This document shows positions 19,379-43,960 of a DNA stretch of 64,000 nt, one piece after another. Every line of letters starts with the position of its first letter. Position 1 is the stretch's first letter. The stretch spans positions 32,001 to 96,000 of IMG/VR virus record IMGVR_UViG_3300032291_001597; one strand, given 5' to 3'. The stretch comes from a virus. The translations under genes were made by a program, and so were the position numbers. The notes below the pieces were generated by a model. That model ran no database searches. It saw only the letters and a program-made list of their open reading frames with translations, and had not been told where the DNA came from.

Positions 19379-20120
19379 CGTCGAGCGTTTTATTGCACAA
19401 GCCCTAAGTTATAACGGATACACCGCGAGCGCGGGCCGTATCAATATCTTCGGCGAGCGCCTTGGTATGAACGGCTTGCCTTGGGACGGTATCTTTATTG
19501 ACGTCGTCGCCCGCGAAGTCGGCGTGCCCCTACCTTCCCACATTTATCCACCCGTCGCGCTCGCGGAATACATGGGGTCGGGACTTTTCCGTGCGAAGCC
19601 TCGACGGGGAGACATTGTGTTCTTTGCGACGTCTGAGGTAATGGACTTCGGCTCGCCTCACGTTGGTATAGTAACGGATGCCTCACGGCACGCGATAGAC
19701 GGAACCTTCACAACGGTGGAGGGTATGGTCGGAAACGGCAAGCCTAAGAGTCCCCAAAATGGAGACGGAGTGCATGTGCGTGTCCGTCACCAAACGGAGG
19801 TCATCGGATATGCCCGTCCACGTTTTATTTCTTTAGCAGAACGGATGACCAAAGCGGGAGATGTTCCGACGGTTGTTCCTGCCCAGTTGCGTAACGGCTT
19901 GCGTCATAAGAACGTCGAGGTGGTTCAACTCGCGCTCGCTGGATTGTTCACGGACGTTCGCGGTTTGCCACGGGGACACTTCGATACACGGACTCGACTT
20001 GCTTACGCCAGATTCCAACGGAGCATCGGATATCCGCCTTCGCGTGCAACGGGTGAGGTTGACCTCGCTTCCCTGCAACGGCTTGCCGAGATGACGGGTT
20101 TGTTCACCGCGAGCGCGTAG
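19344..20120 (+). CDS. CHAP-like domain (catalytic Cys replaced by Asp) plus peptidoglycan-binding domain
   Basis: PWDGIF, GDIVFF, HVGIV, TVEG; C-term GHFDTRTRLAYARFQ..G.VD. Confidence 0.75.
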   Translation: MSLFQKPNPTSNVERFIAQALSYNGYTASAGRINIFGERLGMNGLPWDGIFIDVVAREVGVPLPSHIYPPVALAEYMGSGLFRAKPRRGDIVFFATSEVMDFGSPHVGIVTDASRHAIDGTFTTVEGMVGNGKPKSPQNGDGVHVRVRHQTEVIGYARPRFISLAERMTKAGDVPTVVPAQLRNGLRHKNVEVVQLALAGLFTDVRGLPRGHFDTRTRLAYARFQRSIGYPPSRATGEVDLASLQRLAEMTGLFTASA

Positions 20121-20471
20121 GTAACGAAATGATAACGGCTTATGATTTAATCTTGACAAACCGAGAAAAGTCACTTTAAAATGTCTCCGACATTTTAAAG
20201 CAAATTTCGATACACTTCCCTCTACAGGCCAGTGTTTAGGCGGGGGTCGATTTTCCCCCTTTTATTTCATACGGTAAGCAATGATGAGGCCCGCCTCTCG
20301 AAAAGGGGTCCCCATTTTTCCAAGCGGCGAGCCAGGTTTTGCCAGGCGCTTCAGCACGGTTATTTCATAACGGCCTGCCTTAGCGCGAAGCGGGGAACGT
20401 TGACGGCGAGCGTTTACACGCGCTATGTTTGTTTACACAACGGCAAGCCAATAACGGAAAGTAGGAGACGG

Positions 20472-20699
20472 ATGGACTTTGACGCGTGGTTGAAGATGGG
20501 TTACGAGAACGGGTGGGTAGGACCCGACGTGTGCTTTACGCACGACGGCGTGCCAATGACGGCAAGCGAAGAAGCGGAGTTCGAGACGGGGGACCCTTGC
20601 GTACACATAGTGCGCCTGTACGAGTCAACGGATGCGAAACGTGACGTCGAGGAGAACCACTCACCGAGTTTATGGAGAGCCACTAACAAGGGGTGGTAG
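20472..20699 (+). CDS. hypothetical phage protein
   Basis: RBS aggag, MDFDAWLKMGYENGW..CFTHDG. Confidence 0.7.
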   Translation: MDFDAWLKMGYENGWVGPDVCFTHDGVPMTASEEAEFETGDPCVHIVRLYESTDAKRDVEENHSPSLWRATNKGW

Positions 20700-20764
20700 T
20701 TTTTCCAAGCGGGGGTTGACGGACTCTCGAATCAAGCCTCCGGGTTTGTTTTATGATAAAAGCC

Positions 20765-20977
20765 ATGAGACACATCGAGGTACATTTAGTCGAGAGTAAT
20801 GACGACAGAGAGTCGCTGAACATTGCTGGCTTTGAGTTGTTTGAGGTTGAAACCTGCGAACAATGCTTTGAGGAAGTTGGTTTAGTTGAAGACGCTGAGT
20901 TCGTCGCGTTTGTCGCGTGTCTCGACGAAGATGACGAGTGGATTGTCTGCGCTGAGTGCGCTGAGCCAATTCTTTAA
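20765..20977 (+). CDS. small acidic zinc-finger-like protein
   Basis: CEQC..CAEC; leaderless TATGAT-N7-ATG. Confidence 0.6.
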   Translation: MRHIEVHLVESNDDRESLNIAGFELFEVETCEQCFEEVGLVEDAEFVAFVACLDEDDEWIVCAECAEPIL

Positions 20978-20994
20978 GGGGTAGGGGTTTTTCC

Positions 20995-21534
20995 GTGCTA
21001 AAGCCGAAAATCGCTGTTTATTTAAATTTAGAAATTGAACTTTCAGAAGTTCTAAAACTCGCTGAAGACACAGAGTGGGTAGAAGCCACACTTGGTGGCA
21101 GATTTGTTGGGGTGGACGAGACTCTCATCAAATTAGAACCCAGCATTAGAGACGCTTCGCTAAAGAAATTAAAAGTTTTACAGGAAGCGATATTTCCTGA
21201 ACTAAAAAATTATGTCGAAGATTTTACGCACGACAGCGTAGTGATGGATACCTTTGCTTTGGTCAAATACACAGAGGGTCAGTTTTTTTCCGAGCACTCT
21301 GATGGGGTAGAGAATTTTGGTCGCGCCCTCTCAATTGTTATTTATTTGAATGACGACTACGAAGGCGGGGAGTTGTATTTTCGTAATCAAAACCTGACCC
21401 TGAAGCCAGTAGCCAAATCAATGGTTATGTTCCCTTCGACTGAAGAATTTCTCCACGAGGCTAAGCCAGTGATTTCTGGAACTAAATACGCAATCGTCAG
21501 TTTCTGGCATCAGCAACCTAGCGTGGAAAACTAG
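20995..21534 (+). CDS. 2OG-Fe(II) oxygenase, prolyl-4-hydroxylase-like
   Basis: HSD, YLNDDYEGGE, HEA, KY. Confidence 0.85.
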   Translation: MLKPKIAVYLNLEIELSEVLKLAEDTEWVEATLGGRFVGVDETLIKLEPSIRDASLKKLKVLQEAIFPELKNYVEDFTHDSVVMDTFALVKYTEGQFFSEHSDGVENFGRALSIVIYLNDDYEGGELYFRNQNLTLKPVAKSMVMFPSTEEFLHEAKPVISGTKYAIVSFWHQQPSVEN

Positions 21535-21596
21535 CGACCCCTTTTTCTTTGCCAACCCACTTTCAAAATGTCAGTGGCTGCTCATACACTCTGAGT

Positions 21597-22493: not shown

Positions 22494-22886
22494 ATGACAG
22501 AACGAGTAACTTGGGTGGACTACCAGTGGAAAGACGAAGCAATGTCTGGAGACAAGATGGCAATGGTGGTAATTCTCAACGACAAAGACCTTTACGAGAA
22601 GTTGTCTACAGACGACGAGTTCGACCAGCGTGTCTGGTTTTACTTTCAAGACGAGGCAGAGTTCAAGCGTGCGTTCAATAAGGACAACGACGAACACGAG
22701 TTCTACTTGGTCGCACAGTATGACGAAGAGGACAACCCAATCTGTCCATCGTGCGATGGATTCATCCCAAGCAACGAGAACCCAGGCGCATACCCAGGGG
22801 CTATCTCTCGCAAGGACAACAGCACAGAGATTTGCTCTGCCTGTGGGATGGCTGAGGCGCTCGCGGACTTTTATTCAAACACGTAA
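22494..22886 (+). CDS. hypothetical protein with C-terminal zinc ribbon
   Basis: CPSC..YPGAISRKDN..ICSACG. Confidence 0.75.
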   Translation: MTERVTWVDYQWKDEAMSGDKMAMVVILNDKDLYEKLSTDDEFDQRVWFYFQDEAEFKRAFNKDNDEHEFYLVAQYDEEDNPICPSCDGFIPSNENPGAYPGAISRKDNSTEICSACGMAEALADFYSNT

Positions 22887-22974
22887 AAAAAGTTTCGCGA
22901 CACGCTTGACAAATAAAAATAAATCTGTTTTACTATTCAAGTAAACAAAACCACTCGTTAGGAAGGAAAAACAA

Positions 22975-23494: not shown

Positions 23495-24499
23495 ATGACT
23501 GAGACTACAACAACCTTTATCGAGAAGGCAGAACGCCTTCACGCAGATTTGCCAGCAGTTCTTTATGGACTTGCTGGACAAGCGATAAACTCAGAGTTGG
23601 GAAAAACTCTCGACTCTTACTACGACGACAAAGTAGGTCGCGCTGTTATTCGCAATCGTGGATTAGTGAAAGGCAAAATCATTAGCGCAGATGCTCTTGT
23701 AGGAGAAGACTCTTACGCAAGACCTAATGGCGACAAATACTTTGCTCGCAACTGGGGTTCTAGCGCACACAAGGATGTCGAAGTTCTTCGCAAGAGTCGC
23801 GATGTCAATCAGTTCGTGTTGCTTTATGGCGCACCTGGTTGTGGAAAAACCGCGCTCGCGGAAGCCGCGTTTGGTTCAGACCTTTACACAGTTCTAGGTT
23901 CTGGCGACACAGAAGTTTCTGACTTGGTAGGTGGCTATGTCCAAACTCCAAGTGGTTCGTTCGAGTGGATTGATGGTCCTCTCCTTCGCGCAGCAGAAGA
24001 AGGCAAAGTTCTTCTGATTGACGAAGTGGGTCTTATCGACTCGAAGGTCCTGACTGTTGTCTATGGACTTATGGATGGTCGTCGCGAGTACACAGTTACT
24101 GCTAACCCAGAGCGTGGCACAGTCAAGGCGCAAGAAGGATTCTTCGTAATCGCCGCGACTAACCCAAACGCACCGGGCGTAGTTCTGTCAGAGGCTTTGC
24201 TATCGCGATTCACAGTTCAGGCAGAAATGACTACTGACTGGTCGCTCGCGAAGAAGTTGGGCGTTCCAATGCAAATGGTTACTGCGGCGCAGAACCTTGC
24301 TAAGAAGTTCACCAGCGACGAAGTTTCGTGGGTCCCTCAGATGCGCGAGTTGCTCGCGTTCCGAGACCTGTCGAAAGTGTTTGGCACCTCGTGGGCTATC
24401 GAGAATCTGATAGCCGCCTGCCCTGAGTTAGACAGACCAACTGTGGTCGATGTGCTGACTCGTGTGTATGGCGAAGAGTGCCGCTCAGCCAGAATCTAG
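23495..24499 (+). CDS. MoxR/CbbQ/CobS-like AAA+ ATPase
   Basis: Walker A GAPGCGKT, Walker B LLIDE, ATNP, ALLSRF. Confidence 0.92.
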   Translation: MTETTTTFIEKAERLHADLPAVLYGLAGQAINSELGKTLDSYYDDKVGRAVIRNRGLVKGKIISADALVGEDSYARPNGDKYFARNWGSSAHKDVEVLRKSRDVNQFVLLYGAPGCGKTALAEAAFGSDLYTVLGSGDTEVSDLVGGYVQTPSGSFEWIDGPLLRAAEEGKVLLIDEVGLIDSKVLTVVYGLMDGRREYTVTANPERGTVKAQEGFFVIAATNPNAPGVVLSEALLSRFTVQAEMTTDWSLAKKLGVPMQMVTAAQNLAKKFTSDEVSWVPQMRELLAFRDLSKVFGTSWAIENLIAACPELDRPTVVDVLTRVYGEECRSARI

Positions 24500-24561
24500 G
24501 CTCCTTCCCCTAGATTCTCCAGCGAGGGGGTGGGTTAGTTCCCCCACTAACTCACCCTCTC
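24491..24561 (+). other. two strong hairpins with C-rich loops between the AAA+ and VWA genes
   Basis: agaatctagg-ctccttcc-cctagattct, then a 16-bp stem with loop tccccc. Confidence 0.75.
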
Positions 24562-24633
24562 TTCAACTTGACAATCAATAAAAAAACCTTTACCATTACA
24601 GAGTAGCAATTAGATGAAAGGACACAAAGACTA

Positions 24634-26496
24634 ATGGCTCATTACTCACCTAGTATCGAAACTAGAAAATCCACTCCAACTGAGTGGCTACGAATTGGCG
24701 CACAGATTGGTCAAATCGTAAACAACTGGTCTTACAGAGACGACCTCGTGGTCTATCTAGGAGAAGAGATGTCTGCGCCTTACGCAGCGCTCTTCAATCC
24801 TGCGAGCGCCGAGGTCGAGGTCAACGTGGTTCGAGCATTTGGCTCGTTCGCAAATCCTGCTTTGATTGGCGACCTCACCAAGCGCAAGAACCAACTCGAG
24901 CACGCATCAGGTTGTGGCTCTGTCTATCACGAGGCTTGCCACGCGCGATTCACTCGTTGGTCTCTCGCAGACGCTGCTCGTGTTTTGACTAAGCGCGAGC
25001 ACGATGCTCTGATGCTTTTGGAAGAAGGTCGCATCGAATCTTTTGGAGTCGCCTCAATCCCGGGCAACAAAATTCTTCTTCGCTCTTCTGGTATGGAAAT
25101 CGCGATTGGCGACTTCGACAAAGTTAAGGAGAACCTCACCAGCATCGATAGCGTCGTTCAGTTGTGTGGGCTAATGCTTGCTCGCGTTGATGCTGGCGTT
25201 TTCACAGAAGAAGATGTCGAGCCTTTGGCAGAAGTCGTTGACTTAGCGATTGGCGCAGACAACGTTGCCAAGTTGCGTTCTATCTGGATTGCGTTCCAAG
25301 CGCACGACCAGCACACCAACGCTCTGCCTCTTTACGACCTTGCTCGCGAGTGGGTCAAGATTGTAGACGAGATTAAATCAGAGAAGGGCGAAGAGTCTAA
25401 CGATGGTGGATGCTCTTACCCCGGAGCATCAGGTGAGCCGGGCGCATCAGGTGAGCCGGGCGAGCCAAGCGAATCAGGTGAGCCAAGCGAGAACCCAATT
25501 TGGAAAGCAGTCAACAAGGCTCTTGAAGATGCTATCGAAGAAATAAAAGACAACATCCAGATTGACAACCAAACTATTATTGATAACGCAATCGAAGACG
25601 AAGAGATGCGCGAAGAAGTTCAGGCTCGCAACTCTGAGGCAGAACGTCGTCAAGAAGAGAAGAAGGTTTCTGATGAAGTCTTTGGTCGTGGCACTGGTCC
25701 TAGCGCAGACACTAAGACTCGCTCGAGACTAATCGAGAGTCGCAAGCCAACTAGTTCAGAGCGAGCCTCTGCTGTTCGAGTTGCTCGACTACTCGACAAA
25801 GCGAAATACCGCGAGCGCGAGCAAACTCGTATCAAGAGCGTAGTTCCACCGGGTCGCCTTCGCACGCGAGCAATCGTTCAGGGTCAGGCTCTCAAGTCGA
25901 AGGGTATCAACCAAGAGACAGAGGCGTGGCGTAGAACCCAGCGCAAGCACACAGAAGACCCAACTCTTCACGTGGGCGTGCTGGTAGACATCTCAGGCTC
26001 GATGCGTAGCGCGATGAACCCAATGGCGACAACTGCTTGGGTTCTGTCAGAGGCTGGTCGTAGGATTCAGGCTCAGACTTCGATGGTCTACTTCGGCAAT
26101 GGCGTGTTCCCGACTCTCAAGCCGGGACAGCACCTAGACGAAGTGAAGGTCTACTCGGCTACTGACAACACCGAGCGATTCGAGAAGGCGTTCAAGGCGT
26201 TGAACGGTCAGATGAATCTGACTCGCAGTTCGGGCGCTCGTCTGCTCGTGATTGTGTCTGACGGATACTACGACTACGACCAGCGCGAGGCTGCTAGCAA
26301 AGCGGTAGCGGAGTGCGACAAGGCAGGCGTGGCAGTTATCTGGCTCACCTACGACGAAGGCTCGACGGCTAAGGCGATTCTCCAAAACACCAAGAACGCC
26401 CGACTGATTCTCGCGAACGGCAAGACATCGGAAGAGGTCGCCCAACTAATCGGTAGCGAGTCTGCCGATGCGCTGACCAAGGTCGGCAGGAGATAA
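24634..26496 (+). CDS. VWA (MIDAS) protein with N-terminal HEXXH domain, CobT-like
   Basis: YHEACHA..LEEGRIE; LVDISGSM; IVSDG. Confidence 0.88.
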   Translation: MAHYSPSIETRKSTPTEWLRIGAQIGQIVNNWSYRDDLVVYLGEEMSAPYAALFNPASAEVEVNVVRAFGSFANPALIGDLTKRKNQLEHASGCGSVYHEACHARFTRWSLADAARVLTKREHDALMLLEEGRIESFGVASIPGNKILLRSSGMEIAIGDFDKVKENLTSIDSVVQLCGLMLARVDAGVFTEEDVEPLAEVVDLAIGADNVAKLRSIWIAFQAHDQHTNALPLYDLAREWVKIVDEIKSEKGEESNDGGCSYPGASGEPGASGEPGEPSESGEPSENPIWKAVNKALEDAIEEIKDNIQIDNQTIIDNAIEDEEMREEVQARNSEAERRQEEKKVSDEVFGRGTGPSADTKTRSRLIESRKPTSSERASAVRVARLLDKAKYREREQTRIKSVVPPGRLRTRAIVQGQALKSKGINQETEAWRRTQRKHTEDPTLHVGVLVDISGSMRSAMNPMATTAWVLSEAGRRIQAQTSMVYFGNGVFPTLKPGQHLDEVKVYSATDNTERFEKAFKALNGQMNLTRSSGARLLVIVSDGYYDYDQREAASKAVAECDKAGVAVIWLTYDEGSTAKAILQNTKNARLILANGKTSEEVAQLIGSESADALTKVGRR

Positions 26497-26622
26497 CGGC
26501 TTGGGGGTAGGGATTGTGTCCCCCTACCCCCGACACGCCGATACAATAAAACTTGACACGGCAAGCGAATAGCGCAATAATTAGATACACGAGCCAACGG
26601 CTCGCCTAACGGAAGGACAGAA

Positions 26623-27048
26623 ATGGGACAGTATCATCGGCTCGTCAATCTAGACAAGCAGGAGTGGGTAGACCCACACGGCTTGGGATTGGGTAGCAAA
26701 CAATTAGAGCACACGGGTGCGTTCAACGGGTCGCTCTCTGACGCAATGTATTTACTCGTAATGAGTAGCCCGAGACGCGGTGGCGGAGACTGGGCAGAGA
26801 CCGAGGTCTCTGGGCGCTGGGTTGGAGATAGGGTCGTTCTACTGGGCGACTACACAGAAGACGCAGACATTCCCGGTATCGAGAACGCAGGGAAACTCTA
26901 CGCTCAGGTCGAGCAAGAGTTTCTGGACATCACGCCTCAGGTGCGAGACGCTTTCAAACTCGTGTTCAAATTGGACTACGAGATGAAGGTCAGCGATTGG
27001 GACTCTGAGTATTCGTATTGGATAGTCAAGGACCCTGAGCGAGTCTAA
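26623..27048 (+). CDS. hypothetical phage protein
   Basis: ggaagga RBS; MGQYH.LVNLDK. Confidence 0.75.
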   Translation: MGQYHRLVNLDKQEWVDPHGLGLGSKQLEHTGAFNGSLSDAMYLLVMSSPRRGGGDWAETEVSGRWVGDRVVLLGDYTEDADIPGIENAGKLYAQVEQEFLDITPQVRDAFKLVFKLDYEMKVSDWDSEYSYWIVKDPERV

Positions 27049-27055
27049 AAACTGA

Positions 27056-27095
27056 CGAAAGCCACGAGCCTCGAAAGGGGTTCGTGGTTTTTTCG
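27056..27095 (+). terminator. intrinsic terminator
   Basis: gccacgagcctc-gaaa-ggggttcgtggt followed by T run. Confidence 0.8.
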
Positions 27096-27291
27096 TATCT
27101 TGAAAAAGGGGTAGCCCTTTTTCCAAGCGAGGTTTTGACTCGCTCGCTCACTCGCTGTGAAATAAAAATCTGAGTCGTGCTTCTCCTGAACGACACGCCA
27201 AAAAAAAGTTCTATAAATAACTTGACTTAATGTCAGGGCTATGTTTTACTATACCTACATCAAAGTTCTTTGGAAGGAGAACAAACAAAAA

Positions 27292-27696
27292 ATGGCAAAT
27301 TACTACGAGTCAGCAAGAAGCAATTATTTCTTTGTCAAGGACATTGAAGCGTTCGAGGAAGAACTAAATGGTTCTGGTCTCGAAATCAGCACCAAGAAGA
27401 TTGACGACCTAACTCAGGTGTGTCTTCTCGCAAGCGAGGAAAATGGTTTCCCCTTCGAGAAATACGACCTAGACACTTTCGACTCAGAAGAGTTGGATTG
27501 GTCAGACATCTTCAAGCGACACCTAGTTGATAACCAAGTGGCAATCATTATGGGGTCTGGTGCTGAGAAACTCCGCTACATCACAGGCTGGGCTATGGCG
27601 TTCAACAACAAGGGCGAGAGCAAGTCAATCAACCTCGACGCAATCTACGACCTAGCCAAAGAACTTGGCTCAGAAATCACCACAGCAACATACTAA
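27292..27696 (+). CDS. hypothetical phage protein
   Basis: ggaaggag RBS, MANYYESARSNYF. Confidence 0.75.
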   Translation: MANYYESARSNYFFVKDIEAFEEELNGSGLEISTKKIDDLTQVCLLASEENGFPFEKYDLDTFDSEELDWSDIFKRHLVDNQVAIIMGSGAEKLRYITGWAMAFNNKGESKSINLDAIYDLAKELGSEITTATY

Positions 27697-27774
27697 AAAT
27701 AGTTGGGCGTGGTGCTTGACAAATGTCAGGCACTACGCTTATACTGAAAACATAAGTTCTTGGAAGGAGAACAA

Positions 27775-27894
27775 ATGGACATCACAACCCAAGTCTGTAT
27801 TTGCGACATCTGCGAATCACCAGACAAGCACAACATCTACGCAGAAGGTTTCTGCCAAGAGTGCTACGAAGAGTGTCGAGAGGAAAACAACTAA
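27775..27894 (+). CDS. 39-aa Cys-rich protein (not in ORF track)
   Basis: ggaaggag RBS; CICDIC..CQECYEEC. Confidence 0.65.
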   Translation: MDITTQVCICDICESPDKHNIYAEGFCQECYEECREENN

Positions 27895-28040
27895 TGACAG
27901 AAATCAACAAGTGCGACTTGTGCCTAGAGGTCTCAACTGAGGCTCTAGTCAAGTTCGTGAAATTAGACATCTGCGCTGAGTGCGCCGAGAAAATTGACGA
28001 ACAGCACGAGCGTCTTATGCGCTATCTAGACCAACTCTAA
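27894..28040 (+). CDS. 48-aa Cys-rich protein
   Basis: TAATG overlap; CDLC..CAEC. Confidence 0.6.
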   Translation: MTEINKCDLCLEVSTEALVKFVKLDICAECAEKIDEQHERLMRYLDQL

Positions 28041-28057
28041 AAAAGGAAAATAAGCAA

Positions 28058-28327
28058 ATGGAAAAAATCACAGTAAATCTAAAAAGCGAGGCGTTCGCCT
28101 CAATAGACCAACTCATTTCGACTTGGGACAACACCTTCTTGTATCGCCTAACTTGGACAGACAATGTGGCAAACACTTGGGAAGAGTATTACCCAACTTT
28201 GCCAATCGCTCTCGTTCGACTTTCGGCGCTCGCAGAGTGCGTGGATTTCCCAGACAAGTCGTTCAGGGCAGAGCCAGCGAAGTTCATTACTTCTGCTCAG
28301 GAGTTCCTAGACGAGCAGGTGGCATAA
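28058..28327 (+). CDS. hypothetical protein
   Basis: aaagga RBS. Confidence 0.65.
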   Translation: MEKITVNLKSEAFASIDQLISTWDNTFLYRLTWTDNVANTWEEYYPTLPIALVRLSALAECVDFPDKSFRAEPAKFITSAQEFLDEQVA

Positions 28328-28386
28328 AGAACGCTACCTAGGCGTTGATGTAAAATGAAAACATACAAAAGAAAGTTGAGGCTCTT

Positions 28387-34896: not shown

Positions 34897-34937
34897 CAAA
34901 TGGGCTTGACAGCGAGCGCCGATGTTGTATTATTTAC

Positions 34938-35219: not shown

Positions 35220-35365
35220 GCAATAGTCAGGAAGACCCCCGTAGAGATGCGGGGGTTTTCTTTTTCGACACGATAAAAAAGGACTTGACTTTACGATTCA
35301 GTTTCCATAGACTTGTGGCTATCAGGTCAGAAAGACTTGTGGAAACTAACTAAGGAGAAGTAGTT

Positions 35366-35629
35366 ATGGAAACTACCGAAATCAAACAGCGCATCATCGA
35401 GATTAGCGAACGACTAGTCGAAATAAACAGAGAGCAGTCTGCTTCTGGATTCGAACTTGCTCGCGCACAAGGCACAGATGCCGACCTAGGTATTCACATA
35501 GACCCACTCACCAAATGGGCTAGGCGTATGCGCGAACTCAATACCGAGTCTCAGGAACTTGTGGCAGAGCGTCGCCGACTAAGAGACATCAAGCGCGAAC
35601 AGCGTGTATGCGATTGCGCGTGCCACTAA
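35366..35629 (+). CDS. coiled-coil hypothetical protein
   Basis: aaggag RBS; ends CDCACH. Confidence 0.7.
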   Translation: METTEIKQRIIEISERLVEINREQSASGFELARAQGTDADLGIHIDPLTKWARRMRELNTESQELVAERRRLRDIKREQRVCDCACH

Positions 35630-36417
35630 TGAAACTCACAACCCCGATTGAGATTGACACCGCGCTCGCGGAACTCTACGACAAGAAGTATGAATTGCGA
35701 TTGTCAGTTGAGCGTGCCGAGCAGGAAGTGATTTTTGTCGAGAAGTATTACCCAAGCAACCAAGTTCGCAAGGAGCAAGCCGAGACTCGTGTAATCGCAG
35801 TCAAGAATAAACTTGCTGAACTGAGTACCAAGATTGCCGAAGTCGAGAAACTCTACACAGGTTGGACTCGCGCGTTTCTAGTTAGCAACGCTAATGGACA
35901 CATTCACTCAACTATGTCTTGCGCCACTTGTTTCGATACCACTCGATTCATTTGGCTACCGAACTTGTCTGGTGAAGACAGATTGAAGATTGCCGAGTTA
36001 GCAGGTGAAGGTGCTTGTACTATTTGCTACCCAGATGCGCCGAGCGAATACTTTTTGCGTAAGTGTCAGTTGGAAGACCCAAAGAAGGTTCAAGCACGCG
36101 AAGAGCGCGAAGCAAAGAAGAAGGAGCGCGACGCAAAGAAGTTGCTAACTGGAATTACTAACCCAGATGGGACAGACCTAGTAATACGCGAGCGCCGATA
36201 CAACAACACCATCAAGACAGAGCGCACAGCACAGATTTGGGCAGTAGACAACCTTTACTGGATTGGTCAGTATGCCGACAAGGACTGGCTGGTTGAGCAG
36301 GTCGAAGAGCGTAAGCAGAACCACGAAATCGTCTTGGCGGCGCTCGCGCACAAGCGCGGAACATCGGTTGAAGAGCAACGCGAGTTGATTGCTAAGAAAT
36401 TGAAGGCAAAGTTCTAA
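35629..36417 (+). CDS. conserved actinophage-type hypothetical protein
   Basis: GWTRAFLV..GHIHSTMSCATC..CTICYPDAP. Confidence 0.75.
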   Translation: MKLTTPIEIDTALAELYDKKYELRLSVERAEQEVIFVEKYYPSNQVRKEQAETRVIAVKNKLAELSTKIAEVEKLYTGWTRAFLVSNANGHIHSTMSCATCFDTTRFIWLPNLSGEDRLKIAELAGEGACTICYPDAPSEYFLRKCQLEDPKKVQAREEREAKKKERDAKKLLTGITNPDGTDLVIRERRYNNTIKTERTAQIWAVDNLYWIGQYADKDWLVEQVEERKQNHEIVLAALAHKRGTSVEEQRELIAKKLKAKF

Positions 36418-36641
36418 AAACAAAGAAAAAGTTGATGCGGGAAGCCATGTATTCGCTCGGAAAACCGAAACCCCCTTTCTACTACATGGCCTCCCGCTCA
36501 GCCTCGAAGTTTCGCCTCAGAAAATCAGGACTCAGGCTCGAAGACACGCCGACACAAATAAAAAGACAAATACTTGACAGATTGTAAATAAACCTATAAT
36601 CTTGATACATAGGGAAATTCCCTAAGGAAAAAGGAGTTGAA

Positions 36642-36875
36642 ATGCCTGAGAACAAATCAAAGTGCTACTACTGCGATGCCGAAGACTTTAACGACAAAGA
36701 GTTGTGTGCCGAGACTTACAAGGGCGAGTTAAATCACGCCGAGCAGAAGTGGTGTGAGTATTGCGAAGAGCAACCTGTCGACAATCAAGACGGGGACAAC
36801 GACCACTGCGCTCAGTGCTACTACGAGTGGAAAGCCGAAGAGCGTGGTCGCAACTGGGATTACTACCACGCCTAA
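36642..36875 (+). CDS. Cys-rich small protein
   Basis: CYYC..C, CEYC..CAQC; aaggag RBS. Confidence 0.7.
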   Translation: MPENKSKCYYCDAEDFNDKELCAETYKGELNHAEQKWCEYCEEQPVDNQDGDNDHCAQCYYEWKAEERGRNWDYYHA

Positions 36876-36958
36876 AAAATCTTTTACGACACGCTTGACA
36901 AATGTCAATTAGTTCATAATAATAGTTATGTAGTCAAACAAACTACAAAGGAGAAGAA

Positions 36959-37177
36959 ATGAAGTATGTAATCCGCCGAGCAATCGCGTCAGTAGTTCTA
37001 TCACCTGTGGTGGTAATCGCTTATGTAATTTTCTATGCCGTTCTAGTTGGGCTTGGCGCTCAGCCGGGAAACAATGTCGAAGGCGTTATTGCTAATGGTT
37101 GGCTCATCGCTCTCGGAGTTGGAGTGGTATTCACTTTCTGGACTCAGATACAGAAACTAGTTAGCGGGGTGAAGTAG
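36959..37177 (+). CDS. small two-TM membrane protein
   Basis: Promoter, aaggag RBS, hydrophobic. Confidence 0.7.
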   Translation: MKYVIRRAIASVVLSPVVVIAYVIFYAVLVGLGAQPGNNVEGVIANGWLIALGVGVVFTFWTQIQKLVSGVK

Positions 37178-37280
37178 TGCGGGAGATTATCATCGCGCTC
37201 GCGGTCTTCAATGTAATCGCTGGTGCCTACCTATTCGCTTGGTCAATCAAGCAAATCAAGAAATAGGATAGAATAAAACT

Positions 37281-37535
37281 ATGACAAAGCCAATTTTTGA
37301 AATGGAATCTGACGAAGAAATCGTTCAGTATCTCACCGAATCTCAGACAGATTGGGAAAATGGTCTTACCGACCTACAAAATCTCAACGAGTATCCAGAC
37401 GATGAACTGCTAAACATCTATTCAGCAATGGAGTATGTGCGAGAAGCAAAACTTGGTTCTGAAATCAATGGAGATTTTGAAAAGTCAATTCTTGGTGAAG
37501 CAAGTCGCCGACTTGGGTTTATCCCGTTTAAATAG
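37281..37535 (+). CDS. acidic hypothetical protein
   Basis: TAGAAT-N6-ATG. Confidence 0.65.
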   Translation: MTKPIFEMESDEEIVQYLTESQTDWENGLTDLQNLNEYPDDELLNIYSAMEYVREAKLGSEINGDFEKSILGEASRRLGFIPFK

Positions 37536-37563
37536 AAACAAAAAGAAAAGGACAAAAGACAAA

Positions 37564-37782
37564 ATGAAACTTACAAAATCAGACTGGTCTGCTATTAGCG
37601 CCACGATTTATGCCTTAGTTGGGGTGTTCGCAATGCTCGCGCTAGGCAACATTCTTGGCACGCTCAATCCGCTCAATGTGTTTCTGTGCTTAGGCGCAAT
37701 CATTATCTGTCTAGCACTGGCTAGTTTGGCAAAAGAAAAGTCACTAATTGAAGCCGAGTGGGAGTCAGAAGATGAAGTCTAA
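37564..37782 (+). CDS. small membrane protein
   Basis: aagga RBS; two TM segments. Confidence 0.65.
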   Translation: MKLTKSDWSAISATIYALVGVFAMLALGNILGTLNPLNVFLCLGAIIICLALASLAKEKSLIEAEWESEDEV

Positions 37783-37975
37783 GTGGTTCAAGTTCTGGTA
37801 TAGAACTTTCAAAACTTGGAGCAACTATCACTACCGAATGTTCCACGCTTTCTCTTGGCTGTCCTATAATGCTTATGATAAAGTCAAGCGAGACTTGCGG
37901 AGACACGAACGAGTCCGTGATGGGTTGCTTACAATATTCGCGCGATGGGTGCGGAAACTAGTCAGGAGAAGGTAA
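37772..37975 (+). CDS. basic aromatic-rich hypothetical protein
   Basis: Overlap-coupled. Confidence 0.5.
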   Translation: MKSKWFKFWYRTFKTWSNYHYRMFHAFSWLSYNAYDKVKRDLRRHERVRDGLLTIFARWVRKLVRRR

Positions 37976-38263
37976 GTTGGAAATCTTTTTTATAGTCTTA
38001 GGGGCAATAGCACTTACGCTGGGTATTTTTGTCGTCGCCACGCTTGCGCTTGGTCTATCAATCATTAGAAATGCGCCGAAATGGTTCGAAAACGCAGAAT
38101 ATGGCGACGAAGACTAAAAATTAGATGCCGATGGTCCCAGGGTAAAGGGGTAGTCGGTTATCCGAGCGAAATCGTCGATTCGCGCTCGCAAAACTCGACT
38201 TGACAACACAATGGCTATTTGATACAGTTATCAGGTAATCAGAAGACGAAAGGACAAAAACTT

Positions 38264-39253
38264 ATGACTACTCACCAACTAAAGGTCGCATATAGCCCCG
38301 ACTACCTGAACTGGCAACTTGGCTCAGGCGATGGCAACCACCCTACTCAGCCGATTCGTGCGCGTATCGCGCTGGAGTGGCTGAAGGAAGACCTAGGCTC
38401 AGAAGTTGATGTTATCGACCCTGATATCAAGCGAGCAGACAGACGCGAGTTGGAGACTATCCACCACCCTGCCTTTGTCAGTGAAGTTCTAGACCTTGGA
38501 GAGTGTGCCGACTGGACAGACTCAAAACCACAGATGGGACAGACTGCGCTAAAGATGTTTTCTGGAACTGCGCGACTAGTCGAGATGATTATTCGTAATC
38601 AGACAAAGATTGGCTTCAACCCACAGGGAGCAAAGCACCACGCGCAATACCGAACTTCAGAAGGTTTCTGCGTGTTCAATGACTTCGCTTGGGCTGCCAA
38701 AGCCTTCAAGCGTGCTGGACTCAAGGTTGTTTACATCGACTGGGATGTAAACGCTGGTGATGGTGTTCAGAACTTGCTTGCCGATACAGACATTCCAACC
38801 TTCAGTATTCACGGGCACGGGATTTACCCAACTCATTCCGACACTTGGAATGGTGACTACGAAAACAAGAAGACCAAAGGAAACTACACTTGGCACAACG
38901 AAGAGAAGCACTGGTATAACTGGTGCTTGGTTCGTGGCGAAGGCGATGCTGGATTCAAGTGGGCTATCGACGAGATTGCCGAGAAGGTCGCCGAGTATCA
39001 GCCTGATGTGATTCTGCTTGCTACTGGAGCAGATGGTCACGAAGGTGAGCGCTGGGGACTGAAATATACCTTCGATGGCTACGCCTATGCGTCAAAGGTC
39101 ATCGCTGAACTAGCAAACAAGTATGCCGATGGTCGCGTGTTGATTGGTGGCGCTGGTGGTTATCAGCCTTACACCCACACCCCGCGTATCTGGGCAAATG
39201 TCGTAAGGGACATCTATACTCAAACTAATGAAGGAGATACTAATGCCAACTAA
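38264..39253 (+). CDS. histone-deacetylase-like (AcuC/HdaH family) protein
   Basis: GAKHHA, GFCVFND, YIDWDVNAGDGVQ, SIH, GADGH, GAGGY. Confidence 0.88.
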   Translation: MTTHQLKVAYSPDYLNWQLGSGDGNHPTQPIRARIALEWLKEDLGSEVDVIDPDIKRADRRELETIHHPAFVSEVLDLGECADWTDSKPQMGQTALKMFSGTARLVEMIIRNQTKIGFNPQGAKHHAQYRTSEGFCVFNDFAWAAKAFKRAGLKVVYIDWDVNAGDGVQNLLADTDIPTFSIHGHGIYPTHSDTWNGDYENKKTKGNYTWHNEEKHWYNWCLVRGEGDAGFKWAIDEIAEKVAEYQPDVILLATGADGHEGERWGLKYTFDGYAYASKVIAELANKYADGRVLIGGAGGYQPYTHTPRIWANVVRDIYTQTNEGDTNAN

Positions 39254-39575
39254 TCAAGAGATTCGCGAACAAGGTATTGGGAGTAACTTCTCAGTGCTGA
39301 ACCCCGAAGATGGTTACCGAAAGGATAACTCTCTATGGTTTGGTAAGTGTAGCGAGTGCGGAGAGAAAGTAAGTCAGTCTCTACACCACAACTACTGGCA
39401 ACACACCAAATTCTTGGAGAAGGGCTATGGCTCTAAGCAACAGTGGGAAGAGAACAGGTGGCACTCACAGGCCACTTCCACTGGCTTGGACTACTGCCCC
39501 GTCGCTAAGGGAGACCCCGACACCTGCGTAGTTTGGTACTATGACGAAAACAATGAGAAGGTTTTTGTATCATAG
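39243..39575 (+). CDS. hypothetical protein
   Basis: gaaggag RBS; CSECG. Confidence 0.65.
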   Translation: MPTNQEIREQGIGSNFSVLNPEDGYRKDNSLWFGKCSECGEKVSQSLHHNYWQHTKFLEKGYGSKQQWEENRWHSQATSTGLDYCPVAKGDPDTCVVWYYDENNEKVFVS

Positions 39576-39729
39576 AATAGAACTATGACCACAGAGTTAC
39601 TGCCGATTCTAATATCAGTCCTAGTGCTGATATTAGTTTGGGCAGTTTTCTTTTTCAGCATTATGTATCTAATCACAGTTGTATTCGAAAAACTTGAAGA
39701 GCATAGAAATCAAAATAAGGAGCGATGAA

Positions 39730-39897
39730 ATGGGAGAAGTATTTTTTGTTCTAGTTATTGGACTAGCAGTTGTTGCCTCGATTACTTGGCTGCTCGATGG
39801 CTACAAGAAAGAACTAAGAGACCAACAGAATAAGAGAGATGTATCCCCTATGCTGGGAGTCGTCTTACCGAACAAGAAGGACAAGAAAGATGAATAG
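39730..39897 (+). CDS. small membrane protein
   Basis: aaggag RBS; one TM segment. Confidence 0.55.
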   Translation: MGEVFFVLVIGLAVVASITWLLDGYKKELRDQQNKRDVSPMLGVVLPNKKDKKDE

Positions 39898-40066
39898 TTG
39901 GATTGTTAGATTGAAAGATGTAGTTTGGACTGCTGTGTTTGCTGTCGCGCTCGCGGTAGTGGCTATTCTCGTATCACTGGTTGTGCCGAGTGCTATTTCG
40001 CTAGTGCTCGCGCTTGGGTTAGCCTCAGTTTCACTCGCCCTACTATCTTGGAGAGTCGCTAGATAG
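39890..40066 (+). CDS. small two-TM protein
   Basis: Hydrophobic, coupled. Confidence 0.55.
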   Translation: MNSWIVRLKDVVWTAVFAVALAVVAILVSLVVPSAISLVLALGLASVSLALLSWRVAR

Positions 40067-40068
40067 TT

Positions 40069-40443
40069 ATGAGTGATAAGAGATACAAGGTTCCGATTCC
40101 CGTAAAGCCTGAAGACCTTTATGCCGTAAGGGAAAAGGTCAAGCCTGCTGGAGCGTTCGTCGTAGGCGGGGGAGTGGTTGATGAAGTCAGACTATCTGCT
40201 GTTGTGTATCGCAATTTGATGTCGCGCAAGTCTCTCACCATTCACCACTTACAACGCCGATTGAATGAACTTGGCTTCACTTCCGCCTATCTAGACAAAG
40301 ATGGCTGGTTCGATGAAGGAACTAAGTCAGCAATTAGGTTATTTCAAGAAGCAAATGGACTAGCACCAACTGGGATGGTAGATGCCGATACTATAACTAA
40401 AATCTTCGATGGAGACCCGAACGTAGTAGTTGTTTTAGACTAA
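40069..40443 (+). CDS. stand-alone peptidoglycan-binding domain protein
   Basis: LQRRLNELGF..DGWFDEGTKSAIRLFQ..NGLAPTGMVD. Confidence 0.8.
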   Translation: MSDKRYKVPIPVKPEDLYAVREKVKPAGAFVVGGGVVDEVRLSAVVYRNLMSRKSLTIHHLQRRLNELGFTSAYLDKDGWFDEGTKSAIRLFQEANGLAPTGMVDADTITKIFDGDPNVVVVLD

Positions 40444-40563
40444 AAATAAAAGGGGTGCCAGATTCTCTGTGCGATGTTTCCCACTCGCGAACACCTATTG
40501 CTTTTACCCCCGGCCTGAGTTATCTTTATTGACAGAAAGACTTACTAACAGAAAGAAGAAGAA

Positions 40564-41109
40564 ATGACAGAATTTCTCAAAAGAAATCAAAAATTACCAC
40601 CGAACCTGATTGAAATAGTAGCAACCATCTCGGATATGGAACTTCGCGATACCTACGTTCGTGCGCTTAGAAACAAGGGCTGGACCCTACAAAGTATTGC
40701 CGAAGCCTGCGATGTATCCCGCGAGCGCGTTCGCCAAATCTGCGAGATGCCTGAGTCCAAGTTGTTTGACTCAGTGGTAGTTCCTAGTCCGCCACTGAAG
40801 CAGATACGCGAGAAGGTTGTATACGCAGAGCCAACAAAGGAAACTTTAGACAGGTTGCTGGAACTAAAGCCACTTGCTCAACAGGTGCGCTCTCACGCAA
40901 CTCGTTATCGTGCCGAAGCAGAAGAATACACTCGCCTGCTGAACCACGCTCACAAGGTAGAAGGAGTATCGCTATACAACCTAGCCAGACATCTAGGAGT
41001 TACCTATCCCGCTATTCGATTCCGATTGACTCGATACGGATATCTAGACGCTGGTAATGGAACTAGCAAGGTATACAACCCAATCCTTACTAAGAACCGT
41101 GCTCTCTAA
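40564..41109 (+). CDS. tandem HTH DNA-binding protein
   Basis: GWTLQSIAEACDVSRERVRQI; GVSLYNLARHLGVTYPAIRFRL. Confidence 0.75.
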   Translation: MTEFLKRNQKLPPNLIEIVATISDMELRDTYVRALRNKGWTLQSIAEACDVSRERVRQICEMPESKLFDSVVVPSPPLKQIREKVVYAEPTKETLDRLLELKPLAQQVRSHATRYRAEAEEYTRLLNHAHKVEGVSLYNLARHLGVTYPAIRFRLTRYGYLDAGNGTSKVYNPILTKNRAL

Positions 41110-41118
41110 ATCAGAGCA

Positions 41119-41158
41119 AAAAGAAAACCCCTAGACCAAAATCTAGGGGTTTCTTTTT
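41119..41158. terminator. bidirectional terminator
   Basis: aaaagaaaacccctaga..tctaggggtttctttt. Confidence 0.85.
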
Positions 41159-41171
41159 AGTTTGCGGATAC

Positions 41172-41522
41172 TTACTTCAGAACCGAGAGCAGTTTGTCTT
41201 CCTGCTCTTTAGTTAGACCTAGAGTCTCGCCTTCGTCGTCTGCTCCACCAGTGATTACTATGTCGCCCATTATTAGGTCAGTCTTGCCGTAAGACAACTC
41301 CCACAAATATGTAGCAACAAAGTTGAATGGCAGACCATCGAGTTTGCCTTCTTCGTTACACCACATAGTTAGGTCATCTACTGGCTTCTCCAGTGGGACA
41401 GCCTGAATGTAGCCACCAACCGATGACTTCAGGTATTGGTATTCTGCTTTGTCAGAACCTTCTGGTATCGTCTCAATAATTATTTCGCTATTAGTTGTAA
41501 TGCGGATAGCCGTCTTTGACAT
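41172..41522 (-). CDS. DUF3846-like protein
   Basis: VGGYIQAV..MWCNEEGKL..LP.N..AT..GDIVITG. Confidence 0.75.
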   Translation of the reverse strand: MSKTAIRITTNSEIIIETIPEGSDKAEYQYLKSSVGGYIQAVPLEKPVDDLTMWCNEEGKLDGLPFNFVATYLWELSYGKTDLIMGDIVITGGADDEGETLGLTKEQEDKLLSVLK

Positions 41523-41616
41523 CTTGTCTCCTTGTTCAATAAGCGATGATGCTTATGGAATAAGTAAACCATAATCTATCGCTCTTGTCAAGCGTGTCTT
41601 ATGTAATAATAGACCT

Positions 41617-43014
41617 ATGGCTAAATCTATTATGGAACAAATTGCGATGCTCCCCGATGATGAGCGAGCAGTCGTTCTTGCTGGAATGGATGCGGACACC
41701 CTTATGTGGGACTGGTCAGTTTGGGGAAGACCAGAGCAACAGGCTCCACAGGGGGACTGGAACATCTGGATGTATATGGCTGGTCGTGGTGCTGGTAAGA
41801 CTAGGACTGCTGCTGAGTGGGTTAGAGAAGAAGCCAAATACACCAATACGGGTCAGAGAAGATTCGGACTAGTTGCTAGAACTGCTGCCGATGTTCGTGA
41901 CGTTATCGTTGAAGGTGAGTCAGGAATTATGAATGTGTCTGCTCCAAGTGAGAAGCCACTCTATGAACCATCAAAGCGAAGACTCACTTGGCCCAATGGC
42001 AACACTGCCACTCTCTTCACAGCCGATGAACCAGACTCACTTCGTGGACCCCAGTTCACTCACGCTTGGGGAGATGAGATTGCTTCTTGGAGACAGACCC
42101 CAGATGGCGCTGGTATGACAGCCTTCGACAACCTTCGTGTTGGAACTCGTCTAGGCGCACACCCAAAGATTATGATTACCACTACGCCTAAGCGCGTGCC
42201 AGTTCTATATCAGTTGTTGGCTGAGAATACCAAAGACCCTAGCCGTGTAGTTATCACTCGCGGTTCAACACTCGACAACTCAGGTAACTTGTCTAACGCA
42301 TACCTTGACGCAATCACTGGAGTGTATGCGGGCACTCGTCTTGCCCAACAGGAACTCTATGGTGAGATGCTGGACAATGTTGAAGGCGCACTATGGACCG
42401 ATGAGTTACTGAGTAGGTATCGCGAAAACGTAATGCCACTTAGTGCTCCACTTCGCATCATAGGTGTAGACCCTTCAGTAGCAGAGAACCCAAGGGATGA
42501 ATGTGGAATTGTTGTGTGTGCTTCAACTGCCGAGCGTGACTTGTATAAGCGCAATGCTTGGGTGTTAGAAGACGCAACCATCCACGGTTCACCTGAAGTG
42601 TGGGCGAACAAAGTAGTTCAGATGGCACGCAAGTGGGGTTGCCCAGTCGTAGCCGAAATCAACCAAGGTGGTGCCTTAGTTCGTAATGCCATCAATGCGA
42701 TTGACCCGAACATCAAGGTGCTGGAAGTTCACTCTAAATATGGCAAAGCCCTACGTGCCGAGCCAGTAGTTCTTGGATATGAACAAGGTCGCGTTCACCA
42801 CTTGGGATACCACGCAGACCTAGAGAGTCAGATGCTTGCTTGGATTCCAGGAGAAGGCAAATCACCAGACCGTGTAGACGCGTTAGTTCACGCGCTAACA
42901 GCACTGATGATTAAGCCACCTGCTGGATTCGTTGGGGGAAAACTTACTGCTAGGTCATTCGCATCTCGGAGAATTCCAGAAGCGAAGAGCACCTTCTTCA
43001 GACTTAGTAAGTAA
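41617..43014 (+). CDS. terL: terminase large subunit
   Basis: AGRGAGKT, LRG, AWGDE, TTTP; nuclease IGVDP..D, SPDRVDA. Confidence 0.95.
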   Translation: MAKSIMEQIAMLPDDERAVVLAGMDADTLMWDWSVWGRPEQQAPQGDWNIWMYMAGRGAGKTRTAAEWVREEAKYTNTGQRRFGLVARTAADVRDVIVEGESGIMNVSAPSEKPLYEPSKRRLTWPNGNTATLFTADEPDSLRGPQFTHAWGDEIASWRQTPDGAGMTAFDNLRVGTRLGAHPKIMITTTPKRVPVLYQLLAENTKDPSRVVITRGSTLDNSGNLSNAYLDAITGVYAGTRLAQQELYGEMLDNVEGALWTDELLSRYRENVMPLSAPLRIIGVDPSVAENPRDECGIVVCASTAERDLYKRNAWVLEDATIHGSPEVWANKVVQMARKWGCPVVAEINQGGALVRNAINAIDPNIKVLEVHSKYGKALRAEPVVLGYEQGRVHHLGYHADLESQMLAWIPGEGKSPDRVDALVHALTALMIKPPAGFVGGKLTARSFASRRIPEAKSTFFRLSK

Positions 43015-43575
43015 TTACTTACGCCAGTCCTGCGGGTCGATAGATAGCAACCACTCGTTAAAGTTTTCGTTAGTTAGGGATGCGCTTCCGCGATTGTCCT
43101 TCACCAACTGGATTGCTTCTTCTGCCGAGTAGCCTTCGCGAATTAGAACCAATGCGGTTACTATCCCTGAGCGGTTCAGTCCTGCTTGGCATCTAACTAG
43201 GACTCGTTTACCACGCTTCCAATTAGAGTGCGCTACTAGAACTATGTCCCGTAGGTCTTCGACATCGAAGTCAGTCATATCGCCGTCATAGATGCCGAAC
43301 CTAATCTCCTTCACCCACCAGTCCACAGGTTGTGCCGATGAATACATCGTCACTACTAAGTCGAAGTCTTCAGGGGTAATGAAAGCACCAGAGCCGAACC
43401 TTTGTGTGCGGACAGTGTCAGTTGAGTCAGTGCCACCTTGCCACAGACCCGGAGCAATCTCATCCCAGAGTCTCATAGGCATACGGTGACCCTTGTAGGT
43501 CTCGTTAGTCAATGCCGATAGGCTTGTGTTAGTTAGGTTAGTTGTCAATTCAGATTTCCTTTCGTAATTTCTCAT
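43015..43575 (-). CDS. dual-specificity (Cx5R) protein phosphatase
   Basis: VLVRCQAGLNRSG; true start probably ~43482. Confidence 0.88.
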   Translation of the reverse strand: MRNYERKSELTTNLTNTSLSALTNETYKGHRMPMRLWDEIAPGLWQGGTDSTDTVRTQRFGSGAFITPEDFDLVVTMYSSAQPVDWWVKEIRFGIYDGDMTDFDVEDLRDIVLVAHSNWKRGKRVLVRCQAGLNRSGIVTALVLIREGYSAEEAIQLVKDNRGSASLTNENFNEWLLSIDPQDWRK

Positions 43576-43960
43576 AACCCAATGTTATCGAGTCATATCT
43601 CGTCTGTCAAGTCAATGCCGATACTTATTTTGGCTTCGGCACGTCTTATGCCGATAGCCCCTTCTTATGCCGTTGATGATTTTCAATACTTGTCTCCCAA
43701 CCAATTCGCAAGCAGAGTTGATGACTGGCCCGATGACTTTGTTATTTCATAAGCAATAAACAACCAGTTGGAAGCCCTTGCTTCTCCCCCAAAACTTGTA
43801 GACATCCTAGGAACCAGTTATCTACTAGCAATCACATAGCAATAAGCCCAGTTGTCTTCTAGTTTCAGCCCATAACCAGAGAACCAGAAGCCAAAAAGAA
43901 AGGTCGAGCGCGAACGACGGGTGGTTACTGGAAAACCATAGACCCCTTTTTATCTCACCT

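Follow-up and report, generated by a model that had tools for sequence, protein, structure and literature searches.

A bipartite 26-bp word in the early region of an uncultured actinobacterial phage: candidate binding site of a clade-specific factor

The window analyzed here, 64,000 nucleotides long, comprises bases 32001-96000 of the 132,624-bp viral record IMGVR_UViG_3300032291_001597. Its early region carries about 18 copies of a 26-bp word, in which a G-box AAAGGGGT is followed by six free positions (N6) and a T-box TTTTCC, mostly with a RAGCG extension. The word is enriched, confined to one region, under selection in its two blocks, conserved at syntenic places in related phages, and changed in concert from lineage to lineage. 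We infer that a protein binds it, that the phage encodes this binder, and that binding affects transcription. Our favored interpretation, to which we assign a probability of roughly 0.45, is that the word is a cis binding site for a sequence-specific factor which is encoded by the phage clade, acts at the boundaries of early units, and co-evolves with its sites.

In the window, 20 matches were found at ≤ 2 mismatches, where 0.49 ± 0.61 are expected, and none of 100 shuffles gave more than two. The repeated bipartite motif described in the initial annotation is thus real. Over the whole genome, 16 matches have ≤ 1 mismatch, and all of them lie at 50.7-76 kb of the genome, which corresponds to 18.7-44 kb of the window. 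The reversed pattern, taken as a control, gave no match in the whole genome, and with three mismatches allowed, only six scattered matches appeared outside the 18.7-44 kb region. An even spread over the genome, named in the initial annotation as the outcome that would speak against the motif, was not seen, as 16 of 16 matches at ≤ 1 mismatch fall inside 25 kb. The range had been given as 19.5-44 kb with no copy in 1-19 kb; the confinement holds, but a good copy at 18712-18731 (minus strand, inside the gene of a 309-aa protein) lies to the left of it.

After clean-up, 18 distinct sites remained, 12 on the plus and six on the minus strand, in agreement with the earlier description of copies on both strands. 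Two matches were removed: the one at 27074 is an ordinary terminator hairpin which resembles the word, and the one at 27101 (minus strand) is the partly palindromic 27105 site read in reverse. The spacer, claimed to be always 6 bp, has this length in all copies with ≤ 1 mismatch except two. These two AAAGGGGGT copies (18712 and 36459) are ambiguous, as they can be read either with a 5-bp spacer or with a mismatch in the G-box. A 3' extension of the form [AG][ACT]GCG is found in most copies, as had also been noticed.

The 18 orthologous sites were compared in an alignment of the genome with that of G008, a close relative to which long stretches are about 93-95% identical. The T-box was unchanged (0/108, 0%), and changes were rare in the G-box (4/144, 2.8%) and in the extension (3/90, 3.3%). 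In contrast, 11 of the 108 spacer positions (10.2%), 61 of 486 positions in the 5' flank (12.6%), and 82 of 450 in the 3' flank (18.2%) had changed, which gives 143/936 for both flanks pooled. The low rates relative to spacer and flanks place the constraint exactly on the G-box and on the T-box with its extension. Hence, on this comparison, both half-sites are under purifying selection, and the spacer and flanks drift. As the G-box and the T-box are unable to pair, it is the sequence that is conserved and not a structure. This pattern supports the earlier suggestion that the word is a bipartite site recognized by a protein.

The present type of the word gave no match at one mismatch in five more distant complete or long genomes, but lineage-specific versions were found in related phages by a gapped-word search. 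The present genome (18 copies) and the relatives G006-G008 have AAAGGGGT-N6-TTTTCC-RAGCG. In G010, the word is AAAGGGT-N6-TTTTCC-ACGCA (14 copies), and in G001 and G002, it is GGGT-N7-TTTTCC-ATGC (20 and 16 copies, respectively). TTTTCC is invariant across these versions, and other contigs add the extension variants ATGT and ATTC. In every lineage with the motif, the copies are restricted to the region upstream of the terminase gene. The bipartite family is absent from G003, G005, G009, G004, and Actinomycetia phage DSL-LC01, where other repeats occur. In a viral search, only three near-identical viral contigs carried matches to this type. Among 185,579 prokaryote species (one genome each), it is at chance level, with eight single matches; this favors a phage-encoded reader over a host regulon (host not identified).

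The positions of the sites are kept across lineages whose proteins are just 50-75% identical. An antisense site inside the gene of the 309-aa protein occurs at the same place and in the same orientation in the present genome, G001, and G002. The position corresponds to a variable linker of the protein, in which codon choice varies such that each lineage keeps its own extension within the coding sequence. All four motif lineages (the present one, G010, G001, and G002) have a site downstream of a 141-aa gene and a site ahead of the DUF6011 gene, and a site or pair downstream of a 74-aa gene is likewise kept across lineages. Each syntenic site bears the extension typical of its own lineage. Conservation in related phages, which the initial annotation had proposed to check, thus takes the form of syntenic sites in lineage-specific versions. 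Such old positions together with a concerted, lineage-wide change argue against the recent spread of a mobile repeat and for cis sites which changed jointly with their reader.

The lineages lacking the word have repeats of other kinds. In place of the bipartite word, G003 and G005 have the palindrome GTTAGG-N7-CCTAAC, with about 12 copies upstream of the terminase gene, and in G009, dense GATCA-N7-TGATC and GAGCT tandem repeats lie just downstream of that gene. DSL-LC01 has 27 same-strand copies of TTCTAAAG-NN-GTTATAAT at 23590-43303 ahead of small early genes; apparently, this is a promoter with an extended -10 and no -35 hexamer, which is then followed by a common ribosome-site leader AACGACGAAAGGA.

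The region from 15 to 44 kb contains about 50 small rightward genes, many with their own sigma70-like promoter and intrinsic terminator. Twelve of the 18 sites are fully intergenic. Those at 18712 and 19571 lie inside genes, and stop codons are overlapped at 20687 (the end of a predicted open reading frame, ORF), 20975, and 21525. Each intergenic site is at most about 40 nt away from the upstream gene end or terminator tail, 4-108 nt from the next TTGAC hexamer, with no common phase, and the next gene follows after 0 to about 200 nt. A placement between terminator and promoter, as initially described, is therefore borne out by the mapping. Relatives show a much closer coupling to terminators; in G010, the distance from the T-run to the start of the site is 4-6 nt for forward and 13-14 nt for reversed copies. 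Over the four lineages, a run of five or more T residues lies ≤ 50 nt upstream of 29 of 69 sites, compared with 5-9% of random positions. G001 and G002 have many convergent pairs, in which the arms T5CCATGC and GCATGGA5 form long palindromes directly past terminators.

Site 1 (18707-18731, minus strand; AAAGGGGG-N6-TTTTCC-AAGCG, one mismatch) is the antisense copy in the 309-aa gene at 18253-19182. Site 2 (19571-19595, plus) is weak with two mismatches and lies within the CHAP/PG-binding gene at 19344-20120, where a copy had already been reported. Site 3 (20302-20326, plus; perfect core) is located 35 nt past the terminator at 20242-20267 and 78 nt ahead of a TTGACG at 20400. Site 4 (20687-20711, plus; one mismatch) overlaps the end of ORF 20472-20699, with TTGACG 9 nt downstream. 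Site 5 (20975-20999, plus; one mismatch) fills the interval from the stop of 20753-20977 to the GTG start of an oxygenase gene, and site 6 (21520-21544, minus; perfect core) overlaps the stop of the same oxygenase gene. The two are convergent and form the left and right borders of a divergent cassette. Site 7 (27105-27129, plus; perfect core) follows the terminator T-tract downstream of the 141-aa gene by 12 nt, and site 8 (30010-30034, minus; perfect core) follows a terminator by about 30 nt and precedes the promoter of the DUF6011 gene (30223-30669).

The four copies described for the non-coding block at 31.6-32.3 kb are present. They are site 9 (31603-31627, plus; perfect core without the RAGCG extension), site 10 (31774-31798, plus; perfect, past a G-rich tract), site 11 (31979-32003, plus; perfect), and, at the right edge, site 12 (32223-32247, minus; one mismatch). 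Site 13 (32694-32718, plus; perfect) is found 40 nt past a terminator, and its extension GAGCGC opens a long hairpin. Site 14 (34026-34050, plus; one mismatch) comes after two terminators and 20 nt ahead of the TTGACT promoter of the NlpC/P60 gene. Site 15 (36454-36478, minus; AAAGGGGG variant) is 41 nt past the stop of a 262-aa gene, and site 16 (38144-38168, plus; TTATCC variant) is 36 nt ahead of the TTGACA promoter of the deacetylase-family gene. Site 17 (40449-40473, plus) is weak with two mismatches and starts 5 nt past the stop of 40069-40443. Site 18 (43925-43949, minus; perfect core without extension) lies in a 0.8-kb gap leading from the terminase/phosphatase genes to the head module.

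If the favored interpretation is correct, the factor would read two blocks about one helical turn apart, the G-box AAAGGGGT and the T-box with its extension, TTTTCC-RAGCG. The roughly 18 sites, oriented either way, would stand between early units, each following a gene end or terminator and preceding the next host-type promoter. The bound factor would mark or insulate unit boundaries and thereby alter early transcription in time, be it by shut-off, by a roadblock, or by distal control. Site and factor would have co-evolved, leaving each lineage with its own version.

Several other roles were considered and rejected. A promoter of a phage-specific polymerase or sigma factor does not fit both orientations, the convergent pairs in relatives, and the variable distance to genes; the initial annotation had already argued that the word is not a sigma70 promoter, and the results for orientation and distance agree with it. 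The word is not a terminator, as the T-run precedes and does not follow the adjacent hairpin on both strands. An RNA hairpin joining the two blocks would require complementarity, but AAAGGGG and TTTTCC are not reverse complements. The word is too long in its conserved part for a Type I restriction target, and it is enriched and not avoided.

To search for the reading protein, every predicted protein of the genome was profiled against eight related genomes. The Xre/ClgR-like protein (29042-29317) is present in 8/8 relatives. Two paralogous tandem helix-turn-helix (HTH) proteins are encoded on either side of the terminase gene; the one at 44390-44899 occurs in all relatives and the one at 40636-41109 in all but G003 and G005. 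In alignments, the HTH and recognition-helix regions of these three proteins are largely conserved. As they occur in motif-less lineages with conserved helices, they do not track the motif. The initial annotation had named the ClgR-like and three tandem-HTH proteins as candidate binders, which this distribution does not support; two of the tandem-HTH proteins were aligned, and a third was not identified.

Limited to the motif lineages are proteins of 141, 129, 148 (DUF6011), 262, 78, and 114 aa (DUF7246), a deacetylase-family protein, and a glutaredoxin. No fold match by Foldseek or VIA was obtained with the AlphaFold model of the 141-aa protein (mean predicted local distance difference test score, pLDDT, 87.6). 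For the 262-aa protein (35629-36417; pLDDT 93.8), the model has a long N-terminal helical hairpin and a four-cysteine globular part, with weak coiled-coil matches to RNA-polymerase secondary-channel factors, namely Gfh1 and HelD bound to RNA polymerase (E 0.15-0.7). The DUF6011 protein is basic, and its nearest Atlas cluster is auto-named "HTH DNA binding," yet the 750 phage homologues are annotated as hypothetical; with 750 deposited phages, the family extends far beyond the clade. Re-screening of shadow ORFs gave no new candidate reader. Separately, we noticed an uncalled ORF (29777-30004) for a 75-aa Lys/Arg-rich protein with an isoelectric point of 11, which ends at the terminator just ahead of site 8 and has partial matches in G010 and G009.

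These results count against a clade-encoded factor in several respects. No binder was found among the profiled proteins, and every Pfam-recognizable HTH protein of the region is also found in motif-less lineages. The motif-limited proteins have no DNA-binding domain recognized in Pfam, PHROGs, or PDB sequence searches, and the models of the 141-aa and 262-aa proteins match no DNA-binding fold. In addition, there is no fixed distance or helical phase between sites and promoters, and the concerted change could also come from gene conversion among the copies.

A more specific proposal is possible, if rather unlikely. The sites would be orientation-independent, terminator-coupled boundary elements of a lytic-type actinophage, at which a clade-specific protein of no known DNA-binding fold, sitting on untranscribed DNA, would insulate early units and secondarily provide joints for cassette exchange. 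They would be one half of a two-word system, the other being strand-specific ACGGCNNGCC arrays which are found in the same lineages only.

We consider it unlikely that the word is an extragenic element like the repetitive extragenic palindromes (REP) or bacterial interspersed mosaic elements (BIME), in which it would be the recognition flank of a hairpin and act via DNA or RNA structure at gene ends. Roles proposed for such an element are protection of transcript 3' ends, insulation, or a target for a structure-specific enzyme. The intergenic position, the two orientations, the inverted pairs, and the species-specific sequence all fit, and in roughly every second copy of the present genome, the RAGCG extension makes up the 5' arm of a hairpin. 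The convergent pairs of G001 and G002 also form long palindromes just past terminators. However, many copies lack the hairpin (in G010, most of them), no pairing is possible between G-box and T-box, and three copies of the present genome lie in or overlap coding sequence. A search of the complete genome with PF01797 found no Y1/HUH transposase of the REP-associated tyrosine transposase (RAYT) type, whereas control genomes were positive.

Quite unlikely, in our estimate, is a function at the DNA level in the first-expressed region, in which the sites would serve an initiator at a replication origin, in the manner of iterons, or would organize this DNA through anchoring or entry control. Four copies do lie in a 1.2-kb gene-free block (31.1-32.3 kb) together with 13 strand-specific ACGGCTYGCC units of 14-bp period, G-runs, and A-rich repeats, and the ACGGCNNGCC word is distributed over the lineages as the bipartite word is. 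Plasmid iterons, too, are typically asymmetric, span about 20 bp, and are read in two successive grooves. In addition, 4-bp palindromes are scarcer here than in the remainder of the genome, which is the one fact related to the early-entry mark considered in the initial annotation. Against this, 14 of the 18 sites are scattered singly over 25 kb with no regular phase, and no Rep-like initiator was recognized among the proteins. The 119-bp terminal repeat of the record, judged from its shortness, looks like an assembly overlap rather than physical ends.

The ACGGC-NN-GCC word is an observation in its own right. It has 23 copies, all on the coding strand and 13 of them in the array of 14-bp period (19471-20545, 26597, 29389-29670, and 31159-31451). 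Counts are similar in G008, G001, G002, and G010, and the word is nearly absent in G003, G005, G004, G009, and DSL-LC01. It stands ahead of the 141-aa gene in 4/4 motif lineages.

It is very unlikely that the words are recombination joints, serving at unit borders as 26-bp micro-homology or as recombinase targets for cassette swaps. One clear case in favor is the oxygenase gene at 20995-21534, which is a divergent cassette compared with G008 (35-74% identity per 100 bp; protein 55%). Its borders are exactly on the convergent sites 5 and 6, and its flanks are 92-99% identical. Moreover, one indel begins 13 bp from site 8, and a small serine recombinase is encoded. The other mosaic borders (27.3, 32.3, 33.6, and 34.2 kb), however, are at gene starts and not at sites, single sites are not palindromic crossover sites, and an exchange driven by homology would not need two selected blocks with a free spacer. 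The recombinase also has a homologue in the motif-less DSL-LC01. G001 and G002 are too diverged (about 75% identity) for mosaic borders to be mapped between them. A serine-recombinase crossover site was rejected too, since single sites are not dyads and the spacing of pairs ranges from 9 to 23 bp. The recombinase gene itself lies outside the window at genome position 12565-13005 (minus strand; Resolvase domain, E 5e-35; 244-aa frame).

Finally, a host protein exploited by the phage, such as DnaA, with versions that differ by host, is highly improbable: the T-box with extension of G010, TTTTCCACG, matches 8/9 positions of the DnaA-box consensus (TTWTNCACA) and the motif lineages have a common host-like signature of restriction avoidance (no GATC, no AGCT), but only G010 comes close to the 9-mer, most copies of the present genome read TTTTCCAAG or TTTTCCGAG, the CACA core is broken in the versions of this genome and of G001/G002 (CCAAG, CCATG), the DnaA box has nothing that corresponds to the G-box, and the present type of word is at chance level in the bacterial genomes searched.

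The source is an uncultured freshwater actinobacterial phage of 132 kb. Its large terminase (41617-43014) shares 78% identity with that of DSL-LC01, a metagenome-assembled phage, about 60% with those of Microbacterium phages, and 48% with that of Gordonia phage GodonK. DSL-LC01 is known solely as a predicted actinophage, and its repeats were not analyzed in that study (PMC10611076). Related contigs are abundant in freshwater metagenomes. DNA matching 26.5-33.5 kb of the window, which may come from relatives, was found in runs of 14 metagenome studies, mostly of lake or fresh water; no RNA run was among the matching public runs listed. A nucleotide search against deposited phages gave no match.

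Products of the 15-44 kb region include a Mom-family protein, an AAA_5 ATPase with a VWA protein, a CHAP/PG-binding hydrolase, an NlpC/P60 hydrolase, a 2-oxoglutarate (2OG)-Fe(II) oxygenase, a deacetylase-family protein, and the Xre-type HTH protein. The 309-aa protein (18253-19182) occurs in all lineages; it has a four-cysteine DUF5763-like motif, and its C-terminal stretch weakly resembles a small terminase (PDB 7joq, E 0.32). Likely genes for DNA modification and nucleotide metabolism are clustered at 931-8816 and 17022-17558. They encode a Mom-family protein, an N6/N4 DNA methylase, a dUTPase/dCTP-deaminase-like protein, a deoxynucleotide monophosphate kinase fused to DUF4406, and three oxygenases of the 2OG-Fe(II) or Asp/Arg-hydroxylase type. 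This cluster suggests that the DNA may be modified.

Short palindromes are unevenly distributed. GATC and AGCT are wholly absent from the present genome, G008, G001, and G002, and G010 has no GATC and one AGCT. The motif-less lineages have many copies of both, although G004, too, has few GATC. The early region (18-44.5 kb) of the present genome and that of G010 are poorer than the remainder of the genome in CATG, GTAC, TGCA, ACGT, and TTAA. In G001 and G002, CATG is about 5-fold depleted outside the early region, and many early-region CATG sit in the CCATGC of the motif.

Other words recur in the early region as well. The 8-mer GCGAGCGC (18.8-40.8 kb of the window, both strands, genic and intergenic) is 9.5-fold denser there, with 25 copies compared with 10 elsewhere. 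It has GAGCGC in common with some site extensions; G001 has no GAGCGC at all in 135 kb. Early promoters at 22883-22918, 27693-27728, 30120-30155, and 36872-36907 have a common extended, near-palindromic -35 region GCTTGACAAATGTCA. In several intergenic regions (e.g., with hexamers at about 27221 and 30143), a GACACGCC box lies about 30 nt upstream of the -35 and is followed by an A/T-rich stretch; its TTGACAAATGTCAGGGG form is also recurrent in G010.

The lineage versions at syntenic places offer a natural series for the joint change in specificity of a site and its reader, and the 26-bp word, used as a probe, is a direct handle to isolate a regulator from a mostly uncharacterized proteome. 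If the sites serve for insulation or as cassette joints, they bear on how phage early regions remain modular.

Among known systems, the bacterial REP and BIME are extragenic elements at gene ends, which are found in either orientation as well as in inverted pairs, have a species-specific sequence, and are linked to hairpins. What defines a REP, however, is an imperfect palindrome of its own together with a cognate RAYT, whereas here, the blocks cannot pair and no RAYT is encoded. The iterons of plasmid and phage replication origins share with the present word its asymmetry, a length of about 20 bp, and two conserved blocks; in addition, a cluster of its copies occupies a gene-free block. Iterons are tandem and phased at one locus; here, the sites are mostly solitary over 25 kb, the four copies of the gene-free block are unphased at 171-249 bp apart, the other 14 lie elsewhere, and no initiator was recognized. 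The PeSL (promoter early stem-loop) cassettes of T4-type phages are repeated regulatory words between small early genes and can flank swapped cassettes. They consist of an early promoter and a stem-loop in one orientation, while the word described here is neither promoter nor terminator and stands between both. The CIRs (conserved inverted repeats) of the Streptomyces phage phiC31 are operator-like, with many copies in the early region near early promoters and terminators; these are 17-bp palindromes for the known repressor of a temperate phage, whereas the present word is asymmetric.

The nearest known system, in our assessment, is the stoperator array of Cluster A mycobacteriophages. Cluster A stoperators (L5, TipsytheTRex repressor) are asymmetric 13-mers with more than 20 copies in short intergenic spaces, which are read by two domains of a monomeric repressor (PMC9283540). 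The present sites are likewise asymmetric, numerous, and mostly in short intergenic spaces. In contrast to the 13-mer, which has no free spacer, they consist of 8 + 6 + 5 bp with a free 6-bp spacer, and they all lie within 25 kb of 132.6 kb, whereas stoperators are spread genome-wide. The orientation of stoperators follows transcription and is needed for function; here, six of 18 sites are reversed among rightward genes, and convergent pairs occur in G001 and G002. The stoperator-like role considered in the initial annotation fails this orientation rule, with a third of the copies reversed. Stoperators serve temperate immunity. In the present genome, a search for Phage_integrase (tyrosine integrase) gave no match, neither a repressor nor a lysogeny module was recognized, and one small serine recombinase is encoded. 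Also unlike stoperators, no copy consistently overlaps a promoter. In our analysis, the sites belong with the dispersed operator-like sites of phage early regions. Such words were previously described from a few temperate actinophages; here, a large uncultured freshwater phage has a word which is longer, bipartite, orientation-independent, and associated with unit boundaries.

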